Below, one piece after another: positions 2,765-30,774 of a stretch of 64,000 bases of DNA. Position 1 is the stretch's first letter. The number at the start of each line of letters is the position of its first letter. The stretch is from a phage. The notes under the pieces are model-generated. The model did not search any database. It saw nothing but the letters and a program-made list of their open reading frames with translations, and was not told where the DNA came from. A program made the position numbers and the translations under genes. The stretch lies in assembly GCA_019234695.1 (NCBI GenBank), contig GCA_019234695.1_3937.1. One strand, written 5' to 3'.

Positions 2765-3874
2765 ATGACTACTAAAACTAAAGCACAGATTGACGCAGAA
2801 ATTTACAAACTGGTTAAAGAAGGTAAGCTGACTAAAACAGCTATTGCACAGAAATTTAATACTTCAACCCGTTCAGTCGGTCGTGCTGTAGAGCGTCATG
2901 AAGCAACCTTAAAAGGGAATAAGAAGGCAACTTCTACACCAGCTACGAAGTCTTTGAAACAAGTTGCTAAGACTTTTAAAAAGAAAGCTGGCAAACCAGT
3001 TGAAAAGGTTGTTAAAGATGCTGTACAGAAAGCTCCAGTAAATAAACTGCATGAAGCTATGCAGAAAGATGACAAGATTGAGTACATGATTACTGGTGAC
3101 TCTGTAATTATGACTTACGGTTCAGAGTCTGAAATTGTTGAGTCTACTCATCCGAACTATCAAGAGATTGTAGTTCATGTTGTGAAAGGTGAGTTTAAGA
3201 AAGCCTTTGAACTGATGAACATTCGTAAGTCTATCGAAAACTTCACTCAGGGTGCTATCACAATCAAAGGTGACAAACTATTCTACGGTGCTGTTGAGAT
3301 GCGTTCTACTCTGGTTGACCGTATTCTTCACATGATGAAGACTGGAGATAAAGGTTTTGAACGCCTTGTAATGTTCTTTGAAAAACTGATGGAAAACCCA
3401 TCTAAAGACTCTGTAGAACAACTTTGGGGCTTCGTATCTCACCTTGATGTTGAAATTGATGAAGAAGGCTACATCATTGGTTGGAAGAAAGTCTCTACTC
3501 GTGAAGGTAAGCTGGTTGACTCCCACACCTACAAAGTTCCTAACGATTTGGGTAACATTGTAGAGATGCCACGTTGGATGGTTGATAATAACCGTAACGT
3601 GACTTGCTCTCAAGGTCTTCATGTTGGTGCTTGGGATTATGTTCGTTGTTTCTCAGGTGATACAATTCTGAAGGTTCGTGTCCATCCACGAGATGTTGTA
3701 TCTGTTCCAACTGATTACAACGATATGAAGATGCGCTCATCTCGTTATGAAGTTGCAGCAATCGTTGATAATCAACGTAAAGTGTTGAAAGCATGGGATG
3801 GCAAGACTGAAGCTTTACATGTCATCGTTGGTACTGCTGGTGAACTCATCTCTCAGCGTAAACGTGAAATCTAA
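2765..3874 (+). CDS. rIIB: rIIB protein
   Basis: 369 aa; C-terminal half colinear with T4 rIIB (LFYGAVEMRSTLVDRIL, GLHVGAWDY, DVVSVP); directly downstream of rIIA. Confidence 0.85.
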   Translation: MTTKTKAQIDAEIYKLVKEGKLTKTAIAQKFNTSTRSVGRAVERHEATLKGNKKATSTPATKSLKQVAKTFKKKAGKPVEKVVKDAVQKAPVNKLHEAMQKDDKIEYMITGDSVIMTYGSESEIVESTHPNYQEIVVHVVKGEFKKAFELMNIRKSIENFTQGAITIKGDKLFYGAVEMRSTLVDRILHMMKTGDKGFERLVMFFEKLMENPSKDSVEQLWGFVSHLDVEIDEEGYIIGWKKVSTREGKLVDSHTYKVPNDLGNIVEMPRWMVDNNRNVTCSQGLHVGAWDYVRCFSGDTILKVRVHPRDVVSVPTDYNDMKMRSSRYEVAAIVDNQRKVLKAWDGKTEALHVIVGTAGELISQRKREI

Positions 3875-6235: not shown

Positions 6236-6501
6236 CAGAGAATCAAGACACTTTCTATGTAGAAGGTTACTTACTGTTGCCACGACCAAAAGAAACTTAT
6301 ATGCGAATCGATTTCTTACCAACCATTATGGATAATGTGATGTGTCATATCTTTATGCAAGGTGTCACAGCACAGCTTAAGCATGTTGGTAAAGATTGCA
6401 AAATAAAGGTTGACACTCATCCAGAAATCAAAGAGAATCACTACACATGGTTCTTACCAGATTCTAAAGAAATCTTAGCAGTTCTTAAAACGAGGAAGTA
6501 A
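6232..6501 (+). CDS. hypothetical protein
   Basis: ORF track; start/stop overlap with neighbours. Confidence 0.45.
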   Translation: MTENQDTFYVEGYLLLPRPKETYMRIDFLPTIMDNVMCHIFMQGVTAQLKHVGKDCKIKVDTHPEIKENHYTWFLPDSKEILAVLKTRK

Positions 6502-6503
6502 CT

Positions 6504-6830
6504 ATGCAGATTAATGGAAGAGACTTTGTAGCCGTTTACTACGAGAAAGATAAAGAAGTTGGCGTAGCACAAGTGTCTTATGGCAATGGTAAGTGGCTAT
6601 ATGGAACAATCGCAGTAGTTGGAACAAGAAGTGATACAAAAACTTTTAAAGATTGTGTTGACCTTCTTGAAGAATCCATTCAGAATCATTGGTGTCTGAT
6701 ATGGATGACTGACAATGAAGTGATAGAACGCTTCAAAAAGATTGATATCAACATTGATAGTATTGAGCATGTTGATTTATATGAGCTAACTGAGAAGGTA
6801 AACTATGAGAGTAATTCTAGCCAGAGATAA
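6504..6830 (+). CDS. hypothetical protein
   Basis: ORF track; tightly packed in same operon. Confidence 0.45.
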   Translation: MQINGRDFVAVYYEKDKEVGVAQVSYGNGKWLYGTIAVVGTRSDTKTFKDCVDLLEESIQNHWCLIWMTDNEVIERFKKIDINIDSIEHVDLYELTEKVNYESNSSQR

Positions 6831-7032
6831 AAAGACACGGAAACTCATCCGGTCAGCAGTATTCATTGGAAGAAATGAAGTCATCCCGTTTACAGCAAAC
6901 GATGTGATAGCCTACAGGAAAAACTTAGTATTTAGTGATTGCTTGCGTGGCTTCATCTCCCAACCGTTGGAAGACTTTAAAAGCCGTTGTGGTAAAGGTA
7001 TCATCATTCAAGAGGCAATTATCAATGGCTGA
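6805..7032 (+). CDS. hypothetical protein
   Basis: ORF track. Confidence 0.4.
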   Translation: MRVILARDKKTRKLIRSAVFIGRNEVIPFTANDVIAYRKNLVFSDCLRGFISQPLEDFKSRCGKGIIIQEAIING

Positions 7033-7225
7033 CTTCTGCAAAGACTGTTCTATAGAAATGTTTGGACGTGATACAGGTGACTTAAAAGGTCTTATCACTG
7101 AGGATGACTTTAAAGCTGGCTACGCAATGCCAGTAATCTGTGAAGGTTGTGGGTGCATCTGGGTAGACCACGAAGGACAGCGTGTAAAACCTTCAGAAGA
7201 TAAAGAATCTTGGGAGAGATGTTAA
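7025..7225 (+). CDS. small Cys-rich zinc-binding protein
   Basis: internal ATG at 7025 (MADFCKDCS...) after AGAGG RBS, trimmed from ORF 6935..7225; CxxC and CEGCGC motifs. Confidence 0.4.
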   Translation: MADFCKDCSIEMFGRDTGDLKGLITEDDFKAGYAMPVICEGCGCIWVDHEGQRVKPSEDKESWERC

Positions 7226-8005
7226 ATGGGTATTGTAAAAGTTGTGAAAGGTAACTTACTAGCTGCCTTCAAAAACACAGACATTGAGTTAATTGCTCAT
7301 GGTTGCAACTGCCGTAACCTCATGGGTGCCGGAATCGCTCAAAAAATTGCTAAGATTTTCCCAAAAGCTGAAGAAGCTGACCGGAAATTCCATAAAAAGT
7401 TTGGCTACAGCGCTCATGATATCGGATACCAGATGGTTGGTGAGGTGTCACATGCTCGAACGGAGTATGGTTACATTTTTAACCTGTATACACAGTTAGA
7501 TGTTGGGAAGTGTGCATCATACCGATACTTAGTGGAGTCACTAGAAAAACTCCGTAAATTTTGCTGGATGCACAACATTCGTAAGATTGGTTTACCCATG
7601 ATTGGTGCAGGTATCGGTGGTTTAGACGCACAAGCTGTGAAAAGCCTCATTAATAGCGTTATGTACAACGTTGATGTGTACCTATACGTCTATGATGAAG
7701 CAATGGCAACTGTAGTTACCCCTAAGTATGCCACCTCAGCACCACAATTCTATGATGGTGTCGTGCTAAGTGACGGTAAGTCTAACCATGTTACCCTCTA
7801 TCAGCTTGTTGATGGTAAGGTCGAGGCTAGTTACCCTCTGGTTAGTGAGATGGGTATGTGTAATAGTGAAATGTTCTCAATTGACCCGTTTGGTAGATAC
7901 GAAGGGGTGTTCTTTGATAACTACCCAGCAGCATACATCTACACAACAAATCAGGATGAAGTTCACTACTTGCTGTATTCTAAAAAGTTCAAATTCATAA
8001 ACTGA
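7226..8005 (+). CDS. macro-domain protein, TARG1/OARD1-like ADP-ribose hydrolase fold, with ~100 aa C-terminal extension
   Basis: IAHGCNCRNLMGAGIAQKIAKIFP and IGLPMIGAGIGGLDAQAVKSLI resemble TARG1 motifs LAHCISEDCRMGAGIA and MPRIGCGLDRL (recalled from memory). Confidence 0.65.
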   Translation: MGIVKVVKGNLLAAFKNTDIELIAHGCNCRNLMGAGIAQKIAKIFPKAEEADRKFHKKFGYSAHDIGYQMVGEVSHARTEYGYIFNLYTQLDVGKCASYRYLVESLEKLRKFCWMHNIRKIGLPMIGAGIGGLDAQAVKSLINSVMYNVDVYLYVYDEAMATVVTPKYATSAPQFYDGVVLSDGKSNHVTLYQLVDGKVEASYPLVSEMGMCNSEMFSIDPFGRYEGVFFDNYPAAYIYTTNQDEVHYLLYSKKFKFIN

Positions 8006-23528: not shown

Positions 23529-23900
23529 ATGAAAAACAGAACAAACAAAGGCCAGTTTAAAAAAGGCCAGTCTGGAAACCCATCTGGAAGACCAAAAGGC
23601 TCTCGTAACAAAAGCTCACTTGTAAAAGCTCAACTGACCATTGATAATTCTGCTGAGTTTGCTGCAAAGTTGTTTGAAGCAATTGTTACAAGGGATGCTG
23701 CTAAGCTTGCAGAGTTCGGGTTAAACACAGACGACGTAACCATCAAGAGCATGATTGAGGTCGGTAAAACTATCATGACTCACTCAGCAGGTGAGATGAA
23801 AGCCATTGCAGCAGACACTAAGAAGACTCCTGATAACGGTGGTCAGTCTCAGACAGATAACAAACCAACGTTCTCTGCTGTTGCAACCCTCAAAAAATAA
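23529..23900 (+). CDS. hypothetical protein with GNPSGRPKG motif
   Basis: ORF track; AAGAGG RBS; N-terminal KGQSGNPSGRPKGSRNK basic motif. Confidence 0.5.
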   Translation: MKNRTNKGQFKKGQSGNPSGRPKGSRNKSSLVKAQLTIDNSAEFAAKLFEAIVTRDAAKLAEFGLNTDDVTIKSMIEVGKTIMTHSAGEMKAIAADTKKTPDNGGQSQTDNKPTFSAVATLKK

Positions 23901-23981: not shown

Positions 23982-25397
23982 ATGAGCGAATTATTTAAAC
24001 ATGCGAACCTTCATGCAGGTCGAACTGAAAATGGTGCTGTAAACCATACTTCATCAATGTCTGCTCTTGTAGACTTTTACAAAGCTGCTGGTTCAAGCCG
24101 TAGCAACGTAGAAATCTTACCAGACCTGTTCTACAAAGCTTTGCGTGAGGATGTTGATGTTGCAGTTCGTATTTTGCTTCATATGCGAGATGTACGAGAA
24201 GGTATGGGTGAGCGTAAAGCCTTCAGAACTGTTTTGCTTCAAGCAATTGAAGATAAAGTTTTAGAGCCTACACAGGTTCTTCGCATTATGGATAAGATTG
24301 CAGAACTTGGTCGTTTTGATGACTTCAAAATCTTCGTGGGTACTTGTTTCGAGACAGATGCCTTCAAACATTTAGAAGCAGCATTACTAGACCCTGCAAC
24401 AGCAGGTTTGGCGGCTAAGTGGTTACCACGAGTCAAACCACGTCATAAGCAGTTTGTAAAACGTTTCTGCAAGTTTGCCAACTTGAGTGAGAAAGAGTAC
24501 CGCACACTGTTGTCTGCACTATCTGATACAGTTGAGCAAAAAATCTCTGCTAATGAGTTTGGTAAGATTGACTACAGTAAGATTCCTTCACTTGCTGCTG
24601 CACGTTACCAAAAACTGTTTAACCGTAAAGATGGAGAGCGTTACAAAGCTTACATCGAGTCCTTATCAAAAGGTGAGACTAAGATTAGCGCTGGTGCTGT
24701 TTACCCATACGATGTGATTAAATCCGTCAAGCATGGTAATGCAGATGTTGCTAATGAGCAGTGGAAAGCACTACCAAACTGGATGGCAGAAGGTGAAAAC
24801 ATCTTGTGTATGTCTGATGTATCAAGTTCAATGTCTTGGGTGAATTTTGGCTCCATTACTGCTCTGGATATTGGTGTATCACTTGCCTTGTATGTAGCAG
24901 AACGCAATACAGGTTGCTTTAAGAATGAGTTGATGGTTTATTCAACAAACCCTCACTTCATCGAACTGAGTGGTGATTTACGAAACCGTCATCGTCAGGT
25001 GATGCGACACGTTGAATATGGCTCAACTAACTTACAAGCAGCTTTTGACCGCATTCTTGAGACAGGCAAAAGAAACAACTTGACTCAGAAAGATATGCCA
25101 AGTAAGCTTATCATCTTCTCCGATATGGAGTTTAATCAGGTTGATGGGGCTAACGGTCGTACAAACTTTGAAGCAATTCAGAGTAAGTACAAAAAAGCTG
25201 GATATGAGATGCCACAACTGGTATTCTGGTACTTAGCAAACCGTAATGGTACTTGCGAAGTATCTGTTAAGGATAACGGTGTAGCAATGGTATCAGGGTT
25301 CTCTCCAGCCACTTTAAAAGCTCTGCTTGGTGGTGAGAAGTTTGACCCAATCAGTGTAATGCTCAAAGCAGTAATGATTGACCGTTATATCTGGTAA
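23982..25397 (+). CDS. Ro60-like protein (helical N-terminal domain plus vWA/MIDAS domain)
   Basis: 471 aa; SDVSSSM (DxSxS MIDAS), LIIFSDMEFN and GFSPATLKAL align by eye with human Ro60 vWA segments DVSASM, FIVFTDNETF, GFDTGAL (recalled). Confidence 0.5.
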   Translation: MSELFKHANLHAGRTENGAVNHTSSMSALVDFYKAAGSSRSNVEILPDLFYKALREDVDVAVRILLHMRDVREGMGERKAFRTVLLQAIEDKVLEPTQVLRIMDKIAELGRFDDFKIFVGTCFETDAFKHLEAALLDPATAGLAAKWLPRVKPRHKQFVKRFCKFANLSEKEYRTLLSALSDTVEQKISANEFGKIDYSKIPSLAAARYQKLFNRKDGERYKAYIESLSKGETKISAGAVYPYDVIKSVKHGNADVANEQWKALPNWMAEGENILCMSDVSSSMSWVNFGSITALDIGVSLALYVAERNTGCFKNELMVYSTNPHFIELSGDLRNRHRQVMRHVEYGSTNLQAAFDRILETGKRNNLTQKDMPSKLIIFSDMEFNQVDGANGRTNFEAIQSKYKKAGYEMPQLVFWYLANRNGTCEVSVKDNGVAMVSGFSPATLKALLGGEKFDPISVMLKAVMIDRYIW

Positions 25398-25415: not shown

Positions 25416-25444
25416 TTGACAATGTGTTTAATACCCTTTAATAT
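25416..25444 (+). promoter_or_regulatory. sigma70-like promoter upstream of tRNA cluster
   Basis: TTGACA-17-TAATAT; -35 flanked by inverted repeat GGGTATT / AATACCC. Confidence 0.55.
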
Positions 25445-25506: not shown

Positions 25507-25536
25507 TTGACAACCACTAAAAAATAATGTTAAAGT
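25507..25536 (+). promoter_or_regulatory. second promoter upstream of tRNA cluster
   Basis: TTGACA-18-TAAAGT with inverted repeat AACCACT / AGTGGTT; ~25 nt upstream of first tRNA. Confidence 0.4.
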
Positions 25537-25560: not shown

Positions 25561-25637
25561 ATCTCTGTTTAGCTCAGCTTGGTAGAGCGTTCCGTTTGGG
25601 GCGGTAAGGCCGGAGGTTCAAGTCCTCCAACAGAGAC
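25561..25637 (+). tRNA. tRNA-Pro (anticodon TGG)
   Basis: manual cloverleaf; acceptor CTCTGTT/AACAGAG, T-arm GGAGG-TTCAAGT-CCTCC, CCA encoded. Confidence 0.65.
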
Positions 25638-25644
25638 CAAATTA

Positions 25645-25722
25645 ATGTTCCAGTGGACAAAATGGTAAAGTCACCACTCTTTCAAAGTGGATATTTGAGG
25701 GTTCAAATCCCTTCTGGAACGC
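25645..25722 (+). tRNA. tRNA-Glu (TTC)
   Basis: manual fold; anticodon arm CCACT-CTTTCAA-AGTGG; T-loop TTCAAAT. Confidence 0.7.
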
Positions 25723-25728
25723 CAGTTT

Positions 25729-25802
25729 TGACAGAAGACCAATTACAGCAAACTTAATCTTATTCATCTGAAGGTAAATCGGACAAAGAAGAGATTTGGT
25801 CT
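25729..25802 (+). ncRNA. structured hairpin RNA E1 (Y RNA-like family)
   Basis: 5-prime ACAGAAGACCAATTACAGCAA pairs with 3-prime TTGGTCTGG; between tRNA-Glu and tRNA-Met. Confidence 0.45.
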
Positions 25803-25813
25803 GGTCATTAAGA

Positions 25814-25890
25814 ATTGCGGGTATAGAGAAAGGGCGTCTCACATGTCTCATTAGCATGGTATCGGCAGGTTCGACTCCTGCACCCGCCTC
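25814..25890 (+). tRNA. tRNA-Met (CAT), atypical
   Basis: anticodon arm CATGT-CTCATTA-GCATG; 1-72 mismatch and 3-nt connector before D-stem. Confidence 0.5.
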
Positions 25891-25895
25891 CAAAT

Positions 25896-25960
25896 TTACA
25901 GAAGACCGTTTACAGCAATATTTATTAAATTTTTAGCGGAAAAATTGAAAGATACGGTCT
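25896..25960 (+). ncRNA. structured hairpin RNA E2 (Y RNA-like family)
   Basis: 5-prime ACAGAAGACCGTTTACAGCAA pairs with 3-prime ACGGTCTGG; compensatory change relative to E1/E3. Confidence 0.45.
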
Positions 25961-25973
25961 GGTAATACTAAAC

Positions 25974-26050
25974 ATGGTTAGGAAGCACATAAGGTATGTG
26001 CGGTCGCCTGTTAAGCGAATGGCACAGGGTTCGAATCCCTGACTAACCGC
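25974..26050 (+). tRNA. tRNA-Asn (GTT)
   Basis: anticodon loop CTGTTAA; D-stem GCAC/GTGC; T-arm CAGGG-TTCGAAT-CCCTG. Confidence 0.7.
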
Positions 26051-26119
26051 CAAATTTAGGAGAGAAGCGATTGCTCACCGATTTGTAAGGTTCAAGTCCT
26101 TAGCCTGAATAGAAATCAA

Positions 26120-26207
26120 ATGTGTCGTTATCCCGTAGATGGTAGCGGTGGGGACTGTAAATCCCTTGTCATTGAGACTCGGTAGGTTCGACTCCTACAC
26201 GGCACAC
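26120..26207 (+). tRNA. tRNA-Tyr (GTA), long variable arm
   Basis: 88 nt; anticodon loop CTGTAAA; T-arm GTAGG-TTCGACT-CCTAC. Confidence 0.7.
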
Positions 26208-26213
26208 CAAATA

Positions 26214-26291
26214 AAGGTTATGTAGTTTAATCTGGTTAAAATACTCCCCTGTCACGGGAGATGATGAGGGTTCAAATCCCTTCATAACCGC
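26214..26291 (+). tRNA. tRNA-Asp (GTC)
   Basis: perfect acceptor GGTTATG/CATAACC; anticodon arm CTCCC-CTGTCAC-GGGAG. Confidence 0.8.
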
Positions 26292-26352
26292 CAATTTTGA
26301 GAGGGCTATTTAGCCCCTCCCTTAAAGAGTTCTTACGAGTATTCTTTAAAGG

Positions 26353-26426
26353 AGCAGAAGACCAAATACAGCAAGCATGTATGAAATTTCAAACCAATTC
26401 AATTTTGAAAATTTAAAACTTGGTCT
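26353..26426 (+). ncRNA. structured hairpin RNA E3 (Y RNA-like family)
   Basis: 5-prime CAGAAGACCAAATACAGCAA pairs with 3-prime TTGGTCTGG. Confidence 0.45.
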
Positions 26427-26438
26427 GGCTCAACAAAT

Positions 26439-26571
26439 TTACAGAAGACCGTTTACAGCAAAACTTAAACAATCTATTTCTCCGGTAAAGAAAAGGCGAG
26501 GGTTCGATTCCTTCACTCGGCAGATGTCGAGTTGGTGTAATGGTAGCACTTAAGATGATAAACAACGGTCT
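26439..26571 (+). ncRNA. candidate Y RNA (YrlA-like) with permuted tRNA-like module
   Basis: terminal stem AGACCGTT / AACGGTCT; internal order T-arm (GAGGG-TTCGATT-CCTTC), ACTCGGC, 4-nt loop, GTCGAGT, D-arm (GTGTAATGGTAGCAC). Confidence 0.5.
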
Positions 26572-26573
26572 GG

Positions 26574-26716
26574 TAATTATCTTTGTAGATAAGTTATTAA
26601 GCTTACCTGTGAGTATGCGACCACAAAGGGTGAATGGGTAAATTCTAGATTTAAACCCAAAAAGGCACATCGCTACAGACCTTAAGCAAGTCTGGGTAGC
26701 TTATCTACAAAGATAA
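26574..26716 (+). ncRNA. long hairpin element with 18-bp terminal inverted repeat
   Basis: ATTATCTTTGTAGATAAG (26574-26591) is the exact reverse complement of CTTATCTACAAAGATAAT (26699-26716); ~107 nt interior with sub-hairpins. Confidence 0.4.
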
Positions 26717-26720
26717 TTTA

Positions 26721-26796
26721 ATGGAAGTGTAGCAGAATGGTGATGCGGCAGACTTTTAATCTGACAGGCGATGGGTTCGAATCCCTCCACTTCTAC
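26721..26796 (+). tRNA. tRNA-Lys (TTT), weak T-stem
   Basis: anticodon loop CTTTTAA; acceptor GGAAGTG/CACTTCT; T-stem has two mismatches. Confidence 0.55.
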
Positions 26797-26800
26797 CAAT

Positions 26801-26877
26801 ATGGTTCAGTCGCAGATAAGGTAATGCAAGGGTCTCATAAGCCCTATGAATGTGGGTTCGATTCCCATCTGAACCTC
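26801..26877 (+). tRNA. tRNA-Met (CAT)
   Basis: perfect acceptor GGTTCAG/CTGAACC; anticodon arm AGGGT-CTCATAA-GCCCT. Confidence 0.7.
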
Positions 26878-26878
26878 C

Positions 26879-26954
26879 AAGCTGGTATAGTTAAGAAGGT
26901 TATAACACTCCCCTGATAAGGGAACATCGGTGGTTCGATTCCACCTACCAGTAC
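26879..26954 (+). tRNA. tRNA-Ile (GAT)
   Basis: anticodon loop CTGATAA; T-arm GGTGG-TTCGATT-CCACC. Confidence 0.75.
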
Positions 26955-26969
26955 CAATTTCAATAAAGT

Positions 26970-26998
26970 TGTTGACATTGAGATGTGACTACTTTATA
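26970..26998 (+). promoter_or_regulatory. internal sigma70-like promoter within tRNA cluster
   Basis: TTGACA-17-TATAGT after tRNA-Ile; precedes ~200 nt tRNA-free structured segment. Confidence 0.55.
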
Positions 26999-27200
26999 GT
27001 AACCTTAGTTTTCGTTGCGTAGCGTCTATTTTGCAAATTTAAAATAAATGCAAACGACAATGTTTTTCTGGCAGTAGCTTGATAGGCTAAACACCAGTGA
27101 GGTCTTCCAATCCCTCATCAAAGAATTTGGCGTACTCGCCCACGGTATGATTAATAAGGTGGGCATCTTTAAGGGCTTTCTAAGAGAGTCTTTAAAGATA

Positions 27201-27277
27201 ATGCACCCTTAGTTCAATTGGATAGAGCAACGGTCTTCTAAATCGTTAGTTACAGGTTCGAATCCTGTAGGGTGTAC
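27201..27277 (+). tRNA. tRNA-Arg (TCT)
   Basis: anticodon arm ACGGT-CTTCTAA-ATCGT; T-arm ACAGG-TTCGAAT-CCTGT. Confidence 0.8.
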
Positions 27278-27419
27278 CAAATAGTTAGCAGATTACTTAG
27301 ACGGCCTTAGCGGGTCTTCCTGTAGGGAGGTGGTCTGTATCTCATGTTTTCCAGAACATGTAAATAATCTGAGAAGGAGCTTGACAGTGTTGAGATAACA
27401 GGGTAAGCTTCGAATTATA

Positions 27420-27502
27420 ATATGGGACGATGTTAAGACTCTAAGGCATGAGCAACGGCCTCCAAAACCGTTTCAAAGGGGTTCAACTCCTCCGTCCCAT
27501 GC
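27420..27502 (+). tRNA. tRNA-Trp (CCA)-like, atypical
   Basis: perfect acceptor ATGGGAC/GTCCCAT; anticodon loop CTCCAAA; ~7 extra nt between acceptor and D-arm. Confidence 0.45.
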
Positions 27503-27515
27503 CAAAGTCTTATTA

Positions 27516-27603
27516 GGGGTAGGTAGCGGCTAATGGTAGCCAAACTGTCTTGAAAACAGTTGCCACTGTAGAGATACGGTGAGGGTTCGACTCCTTTACT
27601 TAC
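27516..27603 (+). tRNA. tRNA-Ser (TGA), long variable arm
   Basis: anticodon arm ACTGT-CTTGAAA-ACAGT; 20-nt variable arm; CCA not encoded. Confidence 0.75.
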
Positions 27604-27757
27604 CGCCTAATAAGATTTACTCCGTCCATGCTTGTTCGCATTGTCGGTTTATCCCTCGTGTATTGTCGTACACTGTCAAAGCACCTAGTAGGTGTCACGG
27701 AGAAGAGATAATATCAAGCTCTCCAAAGGTTCTAGTCACCGGATTAAACAAGACTAT

Positions 27758-27780
27758 GCAAAGACCTATTTAGGTCTTTT
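27758..27780 (+). terminator. terminator-like hairpin inside tRNA cluster
   Basis: AGACCTA-TT-TAGGTCT followed by TTTTT. Confidence 0.45.
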
Positions 27781-27859
27781 TAGAGGGCTTCTAAGGTTAT
27801 TAGTCGCTTGTTGTGGAACCTTGTTGCTTAGGTTCTTAGAAGTTCTCTAAAAAGATTTA

Positions 27860-27937
27860 ATGGGAGATTGACGGTAATTGGTAAACCTACCATCCTTAGA
27901 AGTTGGTGTTTGAGGGTTCGAATCCCTTGTCTCCTAC
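27860..27937 (+). tRNA. tRNA with anticodon TAG (Leu by anticodon), short variable arm
   Basis: acceptor GGGAGAT/GTCTCCT; anticodon loop CTTAGAA; discriminator A; 5-nt variable region. Confidence 0.5.
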
Positions 27938-27944
27938 CAAATTA

Positions 27945-28020
27945 ATGCAGGTGTAGCAAAATGGTTATGCGGCTGACTCTTAATCAGTAAGACGATGGGT
28001 TCAATTCCCTCCACCTGTAC
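27945..28020 (+). tRNA. tRNA-Lys (CTT), weak T-stem
   Basis: paralog of 26721..26796; anticodon arm GCTGA-CTCTTAA-TCAGT. Confidence 0.55.
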
Positions 28021-28026
28021 CAAACA

Positions 28027-28102
28027 TTGGGGATGTAGTTTACATGGTTAAAACATAAGTTTTGCAAACTTAAGTACAGGGTTCAATTCCCTGCTTCTCC
28101 AC
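28027..28102 (+). tRNA. tRNA-Ala (TGC)
   Basis: anticodon arm TAAGT-TTTGCAA-ACTTA; T-arm CAGGG-TTCAATT-CCCTG. Confidence 0.7.
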
Positions 28103-28108
28103 CAATTA

Positions 28109-28183
28109 GTGCATCCATAGTTTAAACGGGAAAATTACAGTCTTCCAAACTGAGGTTGAGGGTTCGATTCCCTCTGGATGCTC
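28109..28183 (+). tRNA. tRNA-Gly (TCC)
   Basis: perfect acceptor GCATCCA/TGGATGC; anticodon loop CTTCCAA; 75 nt. Confidence 0.7.
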
Positions 28184-28189
28184 CAAACA

Positions 28190-28266
28190 ATGCTGCTTTC
28201 GTATAATTGGCTATTACACATCCCTTGTAAGGATGGAAATGCAGGTTCGAGTCCTGTGAGCAGCAC
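28190..28266 (+). tRNA. tRNA-Thr (TGT)
   Basis: anticodon arm CATCC-CTTGTAA-GGATG; T-arm GCAGG-TTCGAGT-CCTGT. Confidence 0.8.
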
Positions 28267-28269
28267 CAA

Positions 28270-28357
28270 TTCAGAGGTCAAGTGAAAGACCGCTTTGAGT
28301 CAACTGAAGACCGTAACAAATACCACGGAGTTGAGTTAGCGGCACAACTTCAGACCT
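28270..28357 (+). ncRNA. structured hairpin RNA E5 (divergent member)
   Basis: outer stem CAGAGGTC / GACCTCTG; internal CTGAAGACCGTAACAAA resembles the E-family 5-prime motif. Confidence 0.35.
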
Positions 28358-28362
28358 CTTTC

Positions 28363-28437
28363 ATACTCGCTTAGTTTATATGGTAAAACATCACCCTTAC
28401 AAGATGAAGAAAAAGGTTCAAGTCCTTTAGTGAGTAC
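28363..28437 (+). tRNA. tRNA-Val (TAC)
   Basis: anticodon loop CTTACAA; T-arm AAAGG-TTCAAGT-CCTTT. Confidence 0.7.
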
Positions 28438-28438
28438 C

Positions 28439-28516
28439 ATGTTCCAGTATCCCAATTGGCAGAGGATGCAAGCTCAAACCTTGTATTAGTGACGGTTCGA
28501 ATCCGTCTTGGAACAC
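28439..28516 (+). tRNA. tRNA with anticodon CAA (Leu by anticodon), short variable arm
   Basis: acceptor GTTCCAG/TTGGAAC; anticodon arm GCAAG-CTCAAAC-CTTGT; discriminator A. Confidence 0.5.
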
Positions 28517-28521
28517 CAATT

Positions 28522-28597
28522 TTGCAGGATTAGTTCAAATGGAAAGAGCAACAGTCTACGAAGCTGTTAATAGGGGTTCGAATCCCTTATCCTGCGC
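28522..28597 (+). tRNA. tRNA-Arg (ACG)
   Basis: perfect acceptor GCAGGAT/ATCCTGC; anticodon loop CTACGAA. Confidence 0.8.
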
Positions 28598-28616
28598 CAG
28601 ATAAAAAGGTGATACT

Positions 28617-28859
28617 ATGCAAACATTAACAGTAGTTGAACATGAAAACTGTGAGAGTATTGAGTTTGTCAGGGTCATTGGTGTTGAACACCACATTTTC
28701 TTAAAAGTGGGATACTTATGCGACCCCGCTAGAGTAGAAAGATTTATACGTGATTGTTTTGGTGGTAGACATCTGAAGAGTGTTATTTTTGAGACAGTTT
28801 TACCAGAAGGTTTAGAAACGAATAATAACATTTACCTCCTTACGAGGATTAGACAATGA
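28617..28859 (+). CDS. hypothetical small protein embedded in tRNA cluster
   Basis: ORF track; AAAGGTG RBS-like upstream. Confidence 0.4.
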   Translation: MQTLTVVEHENCESIEFVRVIGVEHHIFLKVGYLCDPARVERFIRDCFGGRHLKSVIFETVLPEGLETNNNIYLLTRIRQ

Positions 28860-29413
28860 GATACTTAAAGTATGCTTCATGGATTTTCTTAGCTTTGTTA
28901 GAGCCATTTGCAGCAATCTTAGCAGTTATCTTAGCACCTTTTGTAGTTCCATTCTACAGTGAGAAGAAAGGACACTTACCTTTCGGGTTCAGATGGATGG
29001 AGACATATGACAACCCAATTGATGGTGATGAAGGTCACGTTAAAAGATGGGCTAATATTAGATGGATTGGTAAACTAGGTGTCTACATGCAAAGAGTCGG
29101 ATGGCTCTGGAGAAACAAAGCTTATAACTTCTCTTACCATGTATTAGGAAGAGATGTAAGAGATGTTACTAAGTGGAAAGGTAATATCAACGTAAGTTCT
29201 AACCCTGAAGATAATCAGACTGGTTATCTCCTAATGTGGAACAGTAATGCTTGGGGATTATTCGCTTTTATCCCATCAATTAAAGTCTTCGGTAAACAGT
29301 TTTACTGGAGAATTTATGTTGGATGGAAACTTAAAAGTGTTGTCCCAGAAGAAAGAGCATTCTCAAGGGAAAGAGTTATGTTGGCATTCTTTATTCATCC
29401 ACTGAGAAAGTAA
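28856..29413 (+). CDS. hypothetical membrane protein embedded in tRNA cluster
   Basis: ORF track; hydrophobic N-terminus; 4-nt start/stop overlap with upstream ORF. Confidence 0.5.
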   Translation: MRYLKYASWIFLALLEPFAAILAVILAPFVVPFYSEKKGHLPFGFRWMETYDNPIDGDEGHVKRWANIRWIGKLGVYMQRVGWLWRNKAYNFSYHVLGRDVRDVTKWKGNINVSSNPEDNQTGYLLMWNSNAWGLFAFIPSIKVFGKQFYWRIYVGWKLKSVVPEERAFSRERVMLAFFIHPLRK

Positions 29414-29420
29414 AGATTTA

Positions 29421-29496
29421 AAGGGGATTAGTTTACAAGGTTAAAACCTCGGTCTTTGAAATCGAAGAAGTTGGTTCAATTCCAACATCCCCCGCC
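29421..29496 (+). tRNA. tRNA-Gln (TTG)
   Basis: anticodon arm TCGGT-CTTTGAA-ATCGA; T-arm GTTGG-TTCAATT-CCAAC; weak 1-72 pair. Confidence 0.65.
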
Positions 29497-29498
29497 AA

Positions 29499-29577
29499 TG
29501 CTCCATTACTCCAATTGGCAGAGAGGCCAGACTTAAAATCTGTGTTATGTATCGGTTCGAATCCGATATGGAGTACC
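29499..29577 (+). tRNA. tRNA with anticodon TAA (Leu by anticodon), short variable arm
   Basis: acceptor GCTCCAT/ATGGAGT; anticodon loop CTTAAAA; 7-nt variable region; discriminator A. Confidence 0.5.
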
Positions 29578-29582
29578 AAATT

Positions 29583-29658
29583 TAGCGGTATAGCATAACT
29601 GGCAATGCAGCAGTCTCTGAAGCTGTCCTATTAAGGTTCAAATCCTTATGCCGCTGCC
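29583..29658 (+). tRNA. tRNA-Gln (CTG)
   Basis: D-stem GCAT/ATGC; anticodon loop CTCTGAA; T-arm TAAGG-TTCAAAT-CCTTA. Confidence 0.6.
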
Positions 29659-29689
29659 ACTTCTAAGGATTCTTACGAGAGTCCTTAAA

Positions 29690-29765
29690 TGTGGCCTTAT
29701 CATAAATGGTAATGCCCCATGCTGTGAACATGGTCTATACGGGTTCAAATCCCGTAGGTCACCCC
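29690..29765 (+). tRNA. tRNA-His (GTG)
   Basis: perfect anticodon arm CCATG-CTGTGAA-CATGG; T-arm ACGGG-TTCAAAT-CCCGT. Confidence 0.75.
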
Positions 29766-29771
29766 AATTTA

Positions 29772-29847
29772 TAGTCCAAGTAGCTTATATGGTTAAAGCG
29801 CGTGTCTGAAAAACATGAGAAGAGGGTTCAAATCCCACTGGACTACC
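29772..29847 (+). tRNA. tRNA-Phe (GAA)
   Basis: anticodon loop CTGAAAA; D-stem GCTT/AAGC; acceptor register ambiguous by 1 nt. Confidence 0.65.
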
Positions 29848-29864
29848 AATTTCAAAGGTGCTTA

Positions 29865-30599
29865 ATGAAAGAGATGACAGAACAAGGTAAGGAGATTTTC
29901 AATCTCTTAAAAACCGGTAAAGGGTTTTCTAACCCCCTTATTACTGGTGCAGCAGTTCTCGGTGGAACCGTAGCTGCCTCTACATCACTTGTAAGCTCTA
30001 TTAGCTCTGTATCAGACCCTACAGTAAAGGATAAGCTTGTTGCTGCTGGACTTACAACAGTTCTGCTTAACAGCTTTACCACGAGTCTGACAAGCACTAC
30101 ATCAACTACCAAAACACTAACAGATTACGGTCAAAAGTCCATTGATGAGTTTTCATCACGTATGCAGGTAGCAAAAGGTTACTCTAATGTTATGGGTGCA
30201 GCAGGTGAACAAGTTGGCTGTACACCATTTAGTGGTATTATGGGTGTTGCTACAGAGTATGGTCAAAAAACTATTGATACGATTAACAGTGCACTAGATA
30301 GTGTTAATGGTGTGTTAAGTGACTTACAAGATGCTATTGACAAAGGTCTTGATACTATTTCTGATTTAGCTGAGCAAGCTGTTAGTAAGATTAATGAAGG
30401 TATTTCAAAAATTACAGCTTATGCAGATGAAGTTGTGCAGATGATTGAAGAAGAAGCTGCTCTTATTGCAGAGTACCTTAAAACGAATATCAATGGGTTC
30501 TTAGCAGGTATCTTACCAGACTGGTTTGATGATGCTTGTAAAACTGGTGTAATTGACACTATTGCAACACCAGAAATGAAGAACGCATTACAGAAATAA
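29865..30599 (+). CDS. hypothetical Ser/Thr/Ala-rich protein embedded in tRNA cluster
   Basis: ORF 29802..30599 trimmed to internal ATG at 29865 because upstream part overlaps tRNA-Phe. Confidence 0.5.
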   Translation: MKEMTEQGKEIFNLLKTGKGFSNPLITGAAVLGGTVAASTSLVSSISSVSDPTVKDKLVAAGLTTVLLNSFTTSLTSTTSTTKTLTDYGQKSIDEFSSRMQVAKGYSNVMGAAGEQVGCTPFSGIMGVATEYGQKTIDTINSALDSVNGVLSDLQDAIDKGLDTISDLAEQAVSKINEGISKITAYADEVVQMIEEEAALIAEYLKTNINGFLAGILPDWFDDACKTGVIDTIATPEMKNALQK

Positions 30600-30601
30600 A
30601 T

Positions 30602-30694
30602 GGAAGATTAACCCTAAAAGGTAAGGGAGCAGTTTGCTAAACTGCCAGTAGCTGAGAAATCGGTGTACCAGTTCAAGTCTGGTATCTTCCTCCA
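30602..30694 (+). tRNA. tRNA-Ser (GCT), long variable arm
   Basis: 93 nt; perfect acceptor GGAAGAT/ATCTTCC; perfect anticodon arm GCAGT-TTGCTAA-ACTGC. Confidence 0.8.
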
Positions 30695-30698
30695 ATTT

Positions 30699-30774
30699 GA
30701 ATCCGTGACAGAAACGGCTATGTGCCTGTCTGCAAAACAGGTTTATAAGGGTTCGAGTCCCTTCGGATTCTCCA
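30699..30774 (+). tRNA. tRNA-Cys (GCA)
   Basis: perfect acceptor GAATCCG/CGGATTC; perfect anticodon arm CCTGT-CTGCAAA-ACAGG. Confidence 0.8.

Follow-up and report, generated by a model that had tools for sequence, protein, structure and literature searches.

A tRNA-like RNA in the tRNA array of a Felix O1-type phage as a probable YrlA-type Y RNA partner of a Ro60-fold protein

What is the element, here called E4, that holds the arms of a tRNA in permuted order and lies in the 429-nt gap between tRNA-Asp (26216-26293) and tRNA-Lys (26723-26798) of a phage tRNA array? The question was examined in a 64,000-nucleotide stretch of DNA (GenBank assembly GCA_019234695.1, contig GCA_019234695.1_3937.1), referred to as the window, which represents a Felix O1-type myovirus (genus Felixounavirus) and whose tRNA region is 94-97% identical to those of many E. 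coli and Salmonella phages. The array comprises 26 genes on the + strand (25563-30774). A first-pass annotation made from the sequence alone had described a circularly permuted tRNA-like module inside E4 and likened it to the tRNA-like domain of the bacterial YrlA Y RNAs. We find that E4 is, close to certainly, a conserved structured RNA gene and conclude, with a probability of about 0.78, that it is the Y RNA partner, of YrlA (tRNA-mimic) type, of a Ro-like protein encoded nearby.

The module is present, with the T arm, the strand ACTCGGC, a 4-nt loop, the strand GTCGAGT and the D arm following one another in the order proposed, though the T arm and the second strand lie 2 nt beyond the positions first assigned to them (26498-26514 and 26526-26532, not 26496-26512 and 26524-26530). 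The parts of E4 are as follows.

26442-26573, + strand: E4 as a whole, 132 bases, read here as a YrlA-type element; it scores 117 bits with covariance model R1 (see below) and is kept in 13 of 14 assessable Felix-like loci.
26446-26453, + strand: 5' strand of the terminal helix, AGACCGUU, as seen in the minimum free energy (MFE) fold; the helix sequence covaries among distant phages.
26454-26461, + strand: UACAGCAA, a conserved single-stranded motif directly 3' of that strand.
26477-26493, + strand: V hairpin, UUUCU-CCGGUAA-AGAAA (stem 5 bp, loop 7 nt), which follows the 5' linker and precedes the T arm.
26498-26514, + strand: T arm, GAGGG-UUCGAUU-CCUUC, with double changes in 4 of 5 pairs across the family.
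26515-26532, + strand: closed acceptor-like hairpin, ACUCGGC-AGAU-GUCGAGU, with compensatory double changes in 7 of 7 pairs and 97% of cells paired.
26533-26549, + strand: UG linker (26533-26534), corresponding to tRNA positions 8-9, and D arm GUGU-AAUGGUA-GCAC (26535-26549).
26564-26571, + strand: 3' strand of the terminal helix, AACGGUCU, in the MFE fold, preceded by an A-rich linker.

The acceptor strands (ACTCGGC at 26515-26521 and GTCGAGT at 26526-26532) pair over 7 bp including one G-U, and the helix is closed by the loop AGAT (26522-26525), both on inspection of the sequence and in the MFE fold of 26430-26580 (-32.5 kcal/mol), which shows the V, T, acceptor-like and D hairpins. All four hairpins are enclosed by the terminal helix, in which 26446-26453 pairs with 26564-26571. 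The long terminal stem of the first-pass annotation therefore exists as an enclosing helix, but it is only 8 bp, and the opening that had been placed where the anticodon stem would be lies instead between the D arm and an extra hairpin, the V hairpin. E4 has the tRNA elbow residues U8, A14, G18-G19, U54-U55-C56, A58 and G53-C61, and in a strict scan of both strands of the window for a T arm, a hairpin, 2 nt and a D arm in succession it was the sole match.

YrlA RNAs are built as a stem that encloses, in this order, a V arm, a T arm, a closed acceptor-like stem-loop and a D arm (Chen et al. 2014, PMC4201824; Wang et al. 2018 preprint), and the likeness first claimed holds arm for arm, but without the YrlA motif GNCGAA and without a score from the YrlA model RF02553. 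With the YrlA RNAs of S. Typhimurium and M. smegmatis (Rfam RF02553), E4 shares the element order, a two-nt linker and the tRNA elbow residues, its V hairpin corresponds to their V arm, and the acceptor helix of the M. smegmatis RNA is likewise 7 bp. Like them it lies less than 4 kb from a Ro60-type gene on the same strand, proximity of about 4 kb to a Ro60 orthologue on the same strand having been the criterion for calling YrlA RNAs (Chen et al. 2014, PMC4201824), and like them it is accompanied by shorter Y RNAs, the three short elements E1-E3 of the array being the likely analogues of YrlB.

The case that E4 is a conserved structured RNA is carried by covariation. Among the Ounavirinae the T and D arms are nearly constant, and the acceptor-like helix takes three unrelated sequences, every one of which pairs.

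Felixounavirus: ACUCGGC-AGAU-GUCGAGU.
Sf14 and SUSP phages: ACACGU-UACG-GCGUGU.
Mordin and Michonne: ACCCUUC-GCCAAACA-GAAGGGU.

The D arm is also near-identical in three distant contigs (L083, L071 and L021). An alignment was made of 15 RNAs of E4 type, six of them from distant phages, namely a mycobacteriophage and four metagenomic contigs with proteins 40-46% identical. From it RNAalifold recovered the T and D arms, the acceptor helix (7 bp) and a portion of the terminal helix, with double compensatory changes in 15 of the 20 pairs. Paired cells amounted to 95.3%, against 72.3% in shuffled alignments, the observed value being reached in 0 of 500 shuffles on any measure, and they fell to 38-54% when the partner was slid by 1-3 columns. 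Because three of the distant sequences came from a structural pattern, the count was repeated with 7 sequences selected by BLAST or by the terminal helix and motif alone, with no criterion concerning the T arm, acceptor or D arm; here 90% of cells paired, against 69% after shuffling, and 0 of 2000 shuffles reached the observed value. Matches of the pattern scan in L039, L041 (9991), L050 and L080 had been excluded from the alignment as possible tRNA pairs. The match at L041 9991 appears by eye to be the 3' end of a tRNA (acceptor strand and CCA) followed by the start of the next tRNA; ARAGORN makes no call there.

A rival reading takes E4 as a functionless relic of two neighbouring tRNA genes, joining the 3' portion of the first to the 5' portion of the second. 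Dimeric tRNAs give the same T-acceptor-acceptor-D order and are a known class of false positives in YrlA searches, closely spaced tRNAs fill the array, and recombination between T loops does occur: in Salmonella phage SP116 (L012, 10456-10560), a natural isolate without E4, recombination between the T loops of E4 and tRNA-Lys(UUU) has deleted the 3' half of E4, the structured element that follows it and most of tRNA-Lys. The actual tRNA pairs in the window, however, score no more than 27 bits with R1, against 117 for E4. A remnant, to which we assign next to no probability, is ruled out by the covariation of the acceptor strands through three wholly different sequences in the Ounavirinae and more beyond, by the 4-nt loop that joins these strands with neither CCA nor spacer between them, and by the helix and CAGCAA module of the wider family that frames E4. 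Nor is E4 the decayed tRNA pseudogene lacking counterparts in relatives that had been named at the outset as the finding that would count against the permuted module; counterparts exist and covary.

Could E4 instead be a living tRNA gene, circularly permuted or in two pieces, from which cleavage in the AGAU loop and addition of CCA would produce a functional tRNA-Thr(GGU)? The V hairpin has the 5-bp stem and 7-nt loop of an anticodon arm, with GGU at positions 34-36, the acceptor helix has 7 bp, the GenBank record of phage REP5 has a 131-nt tRNA-Thr(GGT) annotated over part of E4, and the YrlA of M. smegmatis is cleaved by RNase P and gains CCA (PMC4201824). Against this, the loop varies in relatives (CCGGUAA, CGGUAA, CUUAUAA, CUGGUAA and AGGGUAU), being the 6-nt CGGUAA in several phages, CUUAUAA in Sf14 and AGGGUAU in Mordin, and it is therefore not an anticodon. 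The V hairpin is absent or unrelated in distant members, and the 3' strand is followed neither by CCA nor by a conserved discriminator. U33 is near-universal in tRNA anticodon loops and is replaced here by C33, and the molecule is broken between the D arm and the 'anticodon' arm, which are connected only through long linkers and a helix that is not part of a tRNA. ARAGORN called no tRNA and no permuted tmRNA at E4, the Rfam tRNA model, which reads the V hairpin as an anticodon arm, gave 18.8 bits on the V and T arms (threshold 29), and the tmRNA_permuted model found no match on E4. Across the gap and the whole array, Rfam at both gathering and permissive thresholds assigned no family to any of E1-E4. 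Since the V hairpin mimics an anticodon arm, we regard the annotation in REP5 as an artefact, and a functional tRNA-Thr as highly improbable. Circularly permuted tRNA genes, which Soma et al. are said to have described in Cyanidioschyzon merolae in 2007, and the two-piece tmRNA specified by the permuted ssrA of alpha-proteobacteria and cyanobacteria do have the T arm and 3' acceptor strand ahead of the 5' strand and D region, as in E4; however, these RNAs have open CCA acceptor ends and are aminoacylated, whereas E4 has a short closed loop, no conserved anticodon and no tag frame. As the acceptor-like helix ranges from 6 to 9 bp and its loop from 4 to 18 nt across relatives, the closed loop is likely to be the general state.

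The reason to read E4 as a Y RNA is the gene that lies 1 kb upstream of it, which encodes a protein with the fold of the Ro60 ring.

23982-25397, + strand: gene for a Ro60-fold protein of 471 aa, with a helical-repeat ring and a vWA domain that has an intact MIDAS motif.

From the end of this open reading frame (ORF) it is 165 nt to the first tRNA and 1,045 nt to E4, which is on the same strand. Pfam assigns DUF2828 and DUF7788 to it, and homologues are annotated in some records as 'RNA-binding protein' or 'vWFA protein'. The AlphaFold2 model (predicted local distance difference test score, 89.6) matches Ro60 over its full length; in Foldseek the 12 best matches were all Ro60/TROVE structures (E 3e-8 to 3e-6), with the Ro60 of phage phiLo in second place. 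The MIDAS residues DxSxS..T..D are invariant in the DUF2828 Ro-like family, which is large. Homologues were found by tblastn in at least 710 phage records, including Felix O1, KVP40-type Vibrio, Yersinia, Listeria (A511/P100-type), Staphylococcus, Campylobacter, Enterococcus and Bacillus phages and the cluster-L mycobacteriophages. The cluster-L homologue is 33% identical over its full length (E 3e-76), is annotated as 'Ro-like RNA binding protein' and also carries Pfam DUF2828; the Listeria phage homologues are 28-29% identical. The protein encoded at 23982-25397 is the presumed partner of E4.

E4 is one of four related elements in the array, all sharing the ends CAGAAGACCnnwTACAGCAA ... nnGGTCTGG.

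25732-25804, + strand: E1, a short member with the terminal helix and UUACAGCAA and without the tRNA-like domain; 26.7 bits with R1, for the terminal module only.
25899-25962, + strand: E2, a short member; 35.2 bits with R1.
26355-26428, + strand: E3, a short member with the helix AGACCAA/UUGGUCU.

E1-E3 are 64-74 nt long with a small variable middle, and the tRNA-like insert is found in E4 alone. Positions 6-7 of the helix are compensatory between the paralogues, being GU/AC in E2 and E4 and AA/UU in E1 and E3. The three short members are kept, with variable middles, in relatives in Mooglevirus, and E1 also in Sf14 and Mordin; they are likely to be YrlB-like partners of the Ro-like protein.

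Members of the wider family, of which distant phages have from one to several copies, combine a terminal helix of 6-9 bp and free sequence, the motif (U)(U/A)(A/U)CAGCAA directly after the 5' strand of that helix, A-rich sequence ahead of the 3' strand, and a location near the Ro-like gene in the same orientation. E1-E4 have all of these features, which are common to the modules found in L021-L083, in mycobacteriophage Faith1, in Listeria phage LMSP-25, in Yersinia phage P778 and in Vibrio phage KVP40. CAGCAA is invariant in our alignment A2 and is also present in the gene-adjacent modules of Faith1 and of the Listeria, Yersinia, KVP40 and metagenomic phages, and in many distant contigs a helix of free sequence followed by (U)UACAGCAA is found beside the Ro-like gene whether a tRNA-like core is present or not. 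We propose that UACAGCAA is the recognition site for the Ro-like protein.

Covariance model R1 was built from the 15-sequence alignment, and all of its 93 matches in about 1 Mb lie on the strand of the Ro-like gene. Sequences outside its training set score 40-70 bits, among them L021, L039, L071, where the match lies 146 nt after the Ro-like gene, and KVP40, where it lies between tRNA-Gln and tRNA-Thr. The association was also counted with a strict helix+ACAGCAA pattern at 66 loci whose Ro-like protein is less than 70% identical. At least one module was present within 1.5 kb on the strand of the gene at 30 of these loci, and the density was 36 modules in 191 kb near the gene (0.19/kb) compared with 4 in 691 kb elsewhere (0.006/kb), a 33-fold difference, with 1 antisense. 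Hence the RNA family defined by the helix and CAGCAA is genomically tied, on the same strand, to the gene for the DUF2828/DUF7788 protein of Ro60 fold.

Individual loci show the same pairing. In Faith1 an RNA 3' of the Ro-like gene reads GGACUCC-UACAGCAAU ... T arm, closed acceptor, UA, D arm ... GGAGUCC, and the sole Rfam match at this locus, to YrlA at 21.7 bits (threshold 69), falls on this RNA of E4 architecture. LMSP-25 (L085) has three tandem helix+ACAGCAA modules (3121-3385) within 400 nt upstream of its Ro-like gene, which is also flanked by a ROOL RNA (1928-2479; 88.5 bits, E 1e-17) and, 1.3 kb downstream, by a gene for the RtcB 'tRNA splicing ligase' (6308-7519), with a tRNA array adjoining. 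Several modules follow the Ro-like gene in P778. KVP40 (L020) has a short member (999-1054) and a tRNA-like member (1622-1740) with the motif UUCAGCAA. Both lie among the genes of its tRNA array, some 6 kb upstream from the Ro-like gene, and the longer one has a D arm that looks degenerate.

The 5' arm of E2 and E4, CAGAAGACCGTT (26442-26453 in E4), matches the reverse complement of the anticodon stem-loop of the phage tRNA-Arg(UCU), AACGGTCTTCT (27228-27238), at 11 of 12 positions, and their 3' arm CAACGGTCT is identical to the segment of that tRNA. The match could reflect ancestry, targeting or coincidence, and we leave it unexplained, since the helices of other lineages are free to vary in sequence.

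E4 lies within a tRNA operon and lacks both a promoter and a terminator of its own, which suggests a different role, in which it would serve the processing or stability of the polycistronic tRNA transcript by drawing in RNase P or other enzymes, independently of any Ro-like protein. The KVP40 copy lies within a tRNA array as well, and the M. smegmatis YrlA owes its cleavage by RNase P to just such a 7-bp acceptor-like helix stacked on a T arm. However, the length of the acceptor helix is not fixed at 7 bp, and such RNAs also adjoin the Ro-like gene without nearby tRNAs: ARAGORN found 0 tRNAs in 17 kb in L021 and a single one, about 4 kb from the RNAs, in L083, and in Faith1, a locus not scanned for tRNAs, the RNAs lie in the gap after the Ro-like gene. 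The invariant CAGCAA and the short E1-E3 would also be left with no role, and we consider a processing element unlikely. A stand-alone tRNA decoy, which would use its elbow to soak up a host defence or modification factor that binds tRNA, the Ro-like gene being unrelated, appears quite improbable as well. It would suit the tRNA elbow residues retained in the T and D loops and the D arm GUGUAAUGGNAGCAC kept between very distant phages, which suggests sequence-specific recognition of this arm, but it explains neither the terminal helix and CAGCAA of E1-E3, which have no elbow, nor the 33-fold strand-specific association with the Ro-like gene. Anticodon nucleases would not be the target, since no anticodon loop is conserved.

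E4 is best described as a YrlA-type Y RNA of a divergent class with a different protein-recognition module; a number of observations nonetheless weigh against this reading. The presumed Ro60 contact of YrlA, GNCGAAN0-1G, does not occur in E4 (26442-26573), which has UACAGCAA instead, and RF02553 (gathering threshold 69 bits) gave no match to E4 at E<=10 in 26290-26725, nor at E<=1 across the array. The linker at positions 8-9 is UG and not the UA conserved in YrlA, though UA is found in Mordin and in distant members, and the equivalent of Y48, the last base of the variable region, is C, A or U among close relatives. The fold energy of E4 is not significant (z only -1.5), and for this reason weight was placed on covariation and the covariance-model score. 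Only 30 of the 66 distant loci are positive under the strict pattern, and E4 is not essential, since the natural isolate SP116 has lost it. On the protein side, Pfam detected no TROVE domain in the 23982-25397 product, and neither a single-sequence phmmer search nor a 38-sequence profile reached any Ro60 in the PDB, so that the link to Ro60 rests on the predicted fold. Other differences from YrlA are the D stem, GUGU/GCAC in E4 and the conserved GCUC/GAGC in YrlA, the presumed partner, a DUF2828/DUF7788 protein related to Ro60 at the level of fold only in place of Ro60 itself, and the embedding of E4 in a phage tRNA array with which it is apparently co-transcribed.

The presumed start of the transcript carrying E1-E4 is at two candidate promoters ahead of tRNA-Pro.

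25416-25444 and 25507-25536, + strand: two sigma-70-like promoters, predicted from their match to the consensus alone (10 of 12 positions in each).

The next strong promoter is at 26972, and no + strand terminator lies in between. E1-E4 would thus be transcribed from about 25416 and about 25507 together with nine tRNAs (tRNA-Pro through tRNA-Ile), and would be freed when the tRNAs on either side are cut out by RNase P and the enzymes of 3' processing, the terminal helix shielding the ends of E1-E4. That E4 binds the Ro-like protein, and what it would do there, we infer from known systems. The helix and CAGCAA module would dock on the phage Ro-like ring in the manner of the conserved Y RNA helix on Ro60 (Chen et al. 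2013, 2014; Stein et al. 2005, cited at second hand), and the T/D elbow, folded into the L-shape of a tRNA, would serve as the effector module. Ro60 and Y RNA form complexes with PNPase in D. radiodurans, in Salmonella and in Thermus phage phiLo (PMC4201824, PMC12135203); by analogy, the elbow may draw in a protein that binds tRNAs, or an exoribonuclease of the host, for example PNPase, and the particle may act on structured RNAs during infection, most plausibly tRNAs or their precursors. E1-E3, which are YrlB-like and have no effector domain, would fill the ring or control access to it. RNase P may cleave the 7-bp Felix-type acceptor helix, as it does the M. smegmatis YrlA, but this would not be a conserved feature.

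Tentatively, and with more doubt than conviction, the DUF2828 Ro-like protein and its RNAs may be seen as an unrecognised and very widespread phage ribonucleoprotein system that has its own recognition code and serves the surveillance, repair or protection of the tRNA pool, or anti-defence, with E4 as its adaptor, sensor or decoy. If so, RNase P might open the 7-bp Felix-type acceptor loop to give a two-piece, CCA-tailed tRNA mimic, and the host defences countered would be those that target tRNAs. The location of the RNAs inside a tRNA operon, and that of an RtcB gene near the Ro-like gene in Listeria phages, point to a link with tRNA metabolism in infection, which is testable.

Pairs of Ro60 and Y RNA are already known from phages, namely mycobacteriophages such as ET08, CcrColossus and Bacillus phage G (Chen et al. 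2014), and phiLo with Yrl1/Yrl2 (PMC12135203). As in the window, a ring protein is encoded next to small RNAs that share its strand, but these proteins are TROVE-annotated and their RNAs were found through CGAA/GNCGAA, whereas the Felix O1/KVP40/Listeria/cluster-L branch uses another motif. As the survey of Chen et al. covered only TROVE-annotated genomes and discarded matches that overlapped tandem tRNAs, this branch fell outside it. In a study of Listeria phage CKA15 (mSystems 2025, PMC12282133), the homologous protein was matched to Rsr by HHpred and was found in purified virions, and its authors speculated that abundant RNAs upstream were Y RNAs. They defined no RNA, however, and the coordinate region that they gave maps to the ROOL RNA, the modules being directly upstream of the gene; the position of the ROOL RNA in LMSP-25 corresponds to the most transcribed region reported for CKA15. 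The expression in CKA15 was considered as evidence for the helix+CAGCAA RNAs and was not counted, the published region being the ROOL RNA and not the modules.

Our literature search, of incomplete coverage, found no phage paper on DUF2828 and no connection of Y RNAs or Ro60 with Felix O1-type phages, KVP40 or DUF2828, and the phage DUF2828 branch of the Ro/Y-RNA system seems to be new to the literature. E4 is most likely a Y RNA of this widespread branch. Ro60 and Y RNAs are conserved from bacteria to humans; a divergent pair would here be placed in virulent phages of E. coli and Salmonella that are genetically tractable. A large family of 'domain of unknown function' proteins is, by predicted fold, Ro-like, with an RNA signature of its own (helix and CAGCAA) that current Rfam models and TROVE-based searches miss, and in hundreds of deposited phage genomes RNAs with this signature are unannotated or mis-annotated as small ORFs or tRNA-Thr.

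Around the Ro-like gene the window encodes a lysozyme, an Ig-domain protein and a DUF5681 protein, with no link to RNA repair. The DUF5681 gene (23529-23900, + strand) is immediately upstream of the Ro-like gene, a position kept in Felix-like phages and in P778; as it occurs in Felix-like and Yersinia phages alone, it cannot be a universal partner.

Directly 3' of E4, at 26575-26718 on the + strand, lies a strongly structured element in which a stem of about 24 bp surrounds four hairpins (MFE -49.2, z -5.0). In Sf14 and Mordin the stem shows covariation (UCUUUGUAGAUAAG vs UCUUUGCAGUGAC). The element has no Rfam match, and some Felix-like phages lack it; it could serve as an RNase III site setting the 3' end of E4, or be a separate non-coding RNA.

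Three further + strand features of the array were noted. In the spacer between tRNA-Asn and tRNA-Tyr (26058-26121) there is a lone T-arm-like hairpin, UAAGG-UUCAAGU-CCUUA, which is kept in Citrobacter phage Mordin. The segment 27424-27498 is tRNA-like, with an acceptor GGGACG/CGTCCC, a T arm and an oversized anticodon loop containing CCA; ARAGORN makes no call there, its sole Rfam match is a weak one to tRNA-Sec (23 bits), and the array is otherwise without a tRNA-Trp. The gap after tRNA-Ile (26898-27202) contains the near-consensus promoter at 26972 and gives weak matches to permuted tmRNA (29.2 bits, threshold 47) and tmRNA (15.7 bits), which are probably driven by the T arm of tRNA-Ile.

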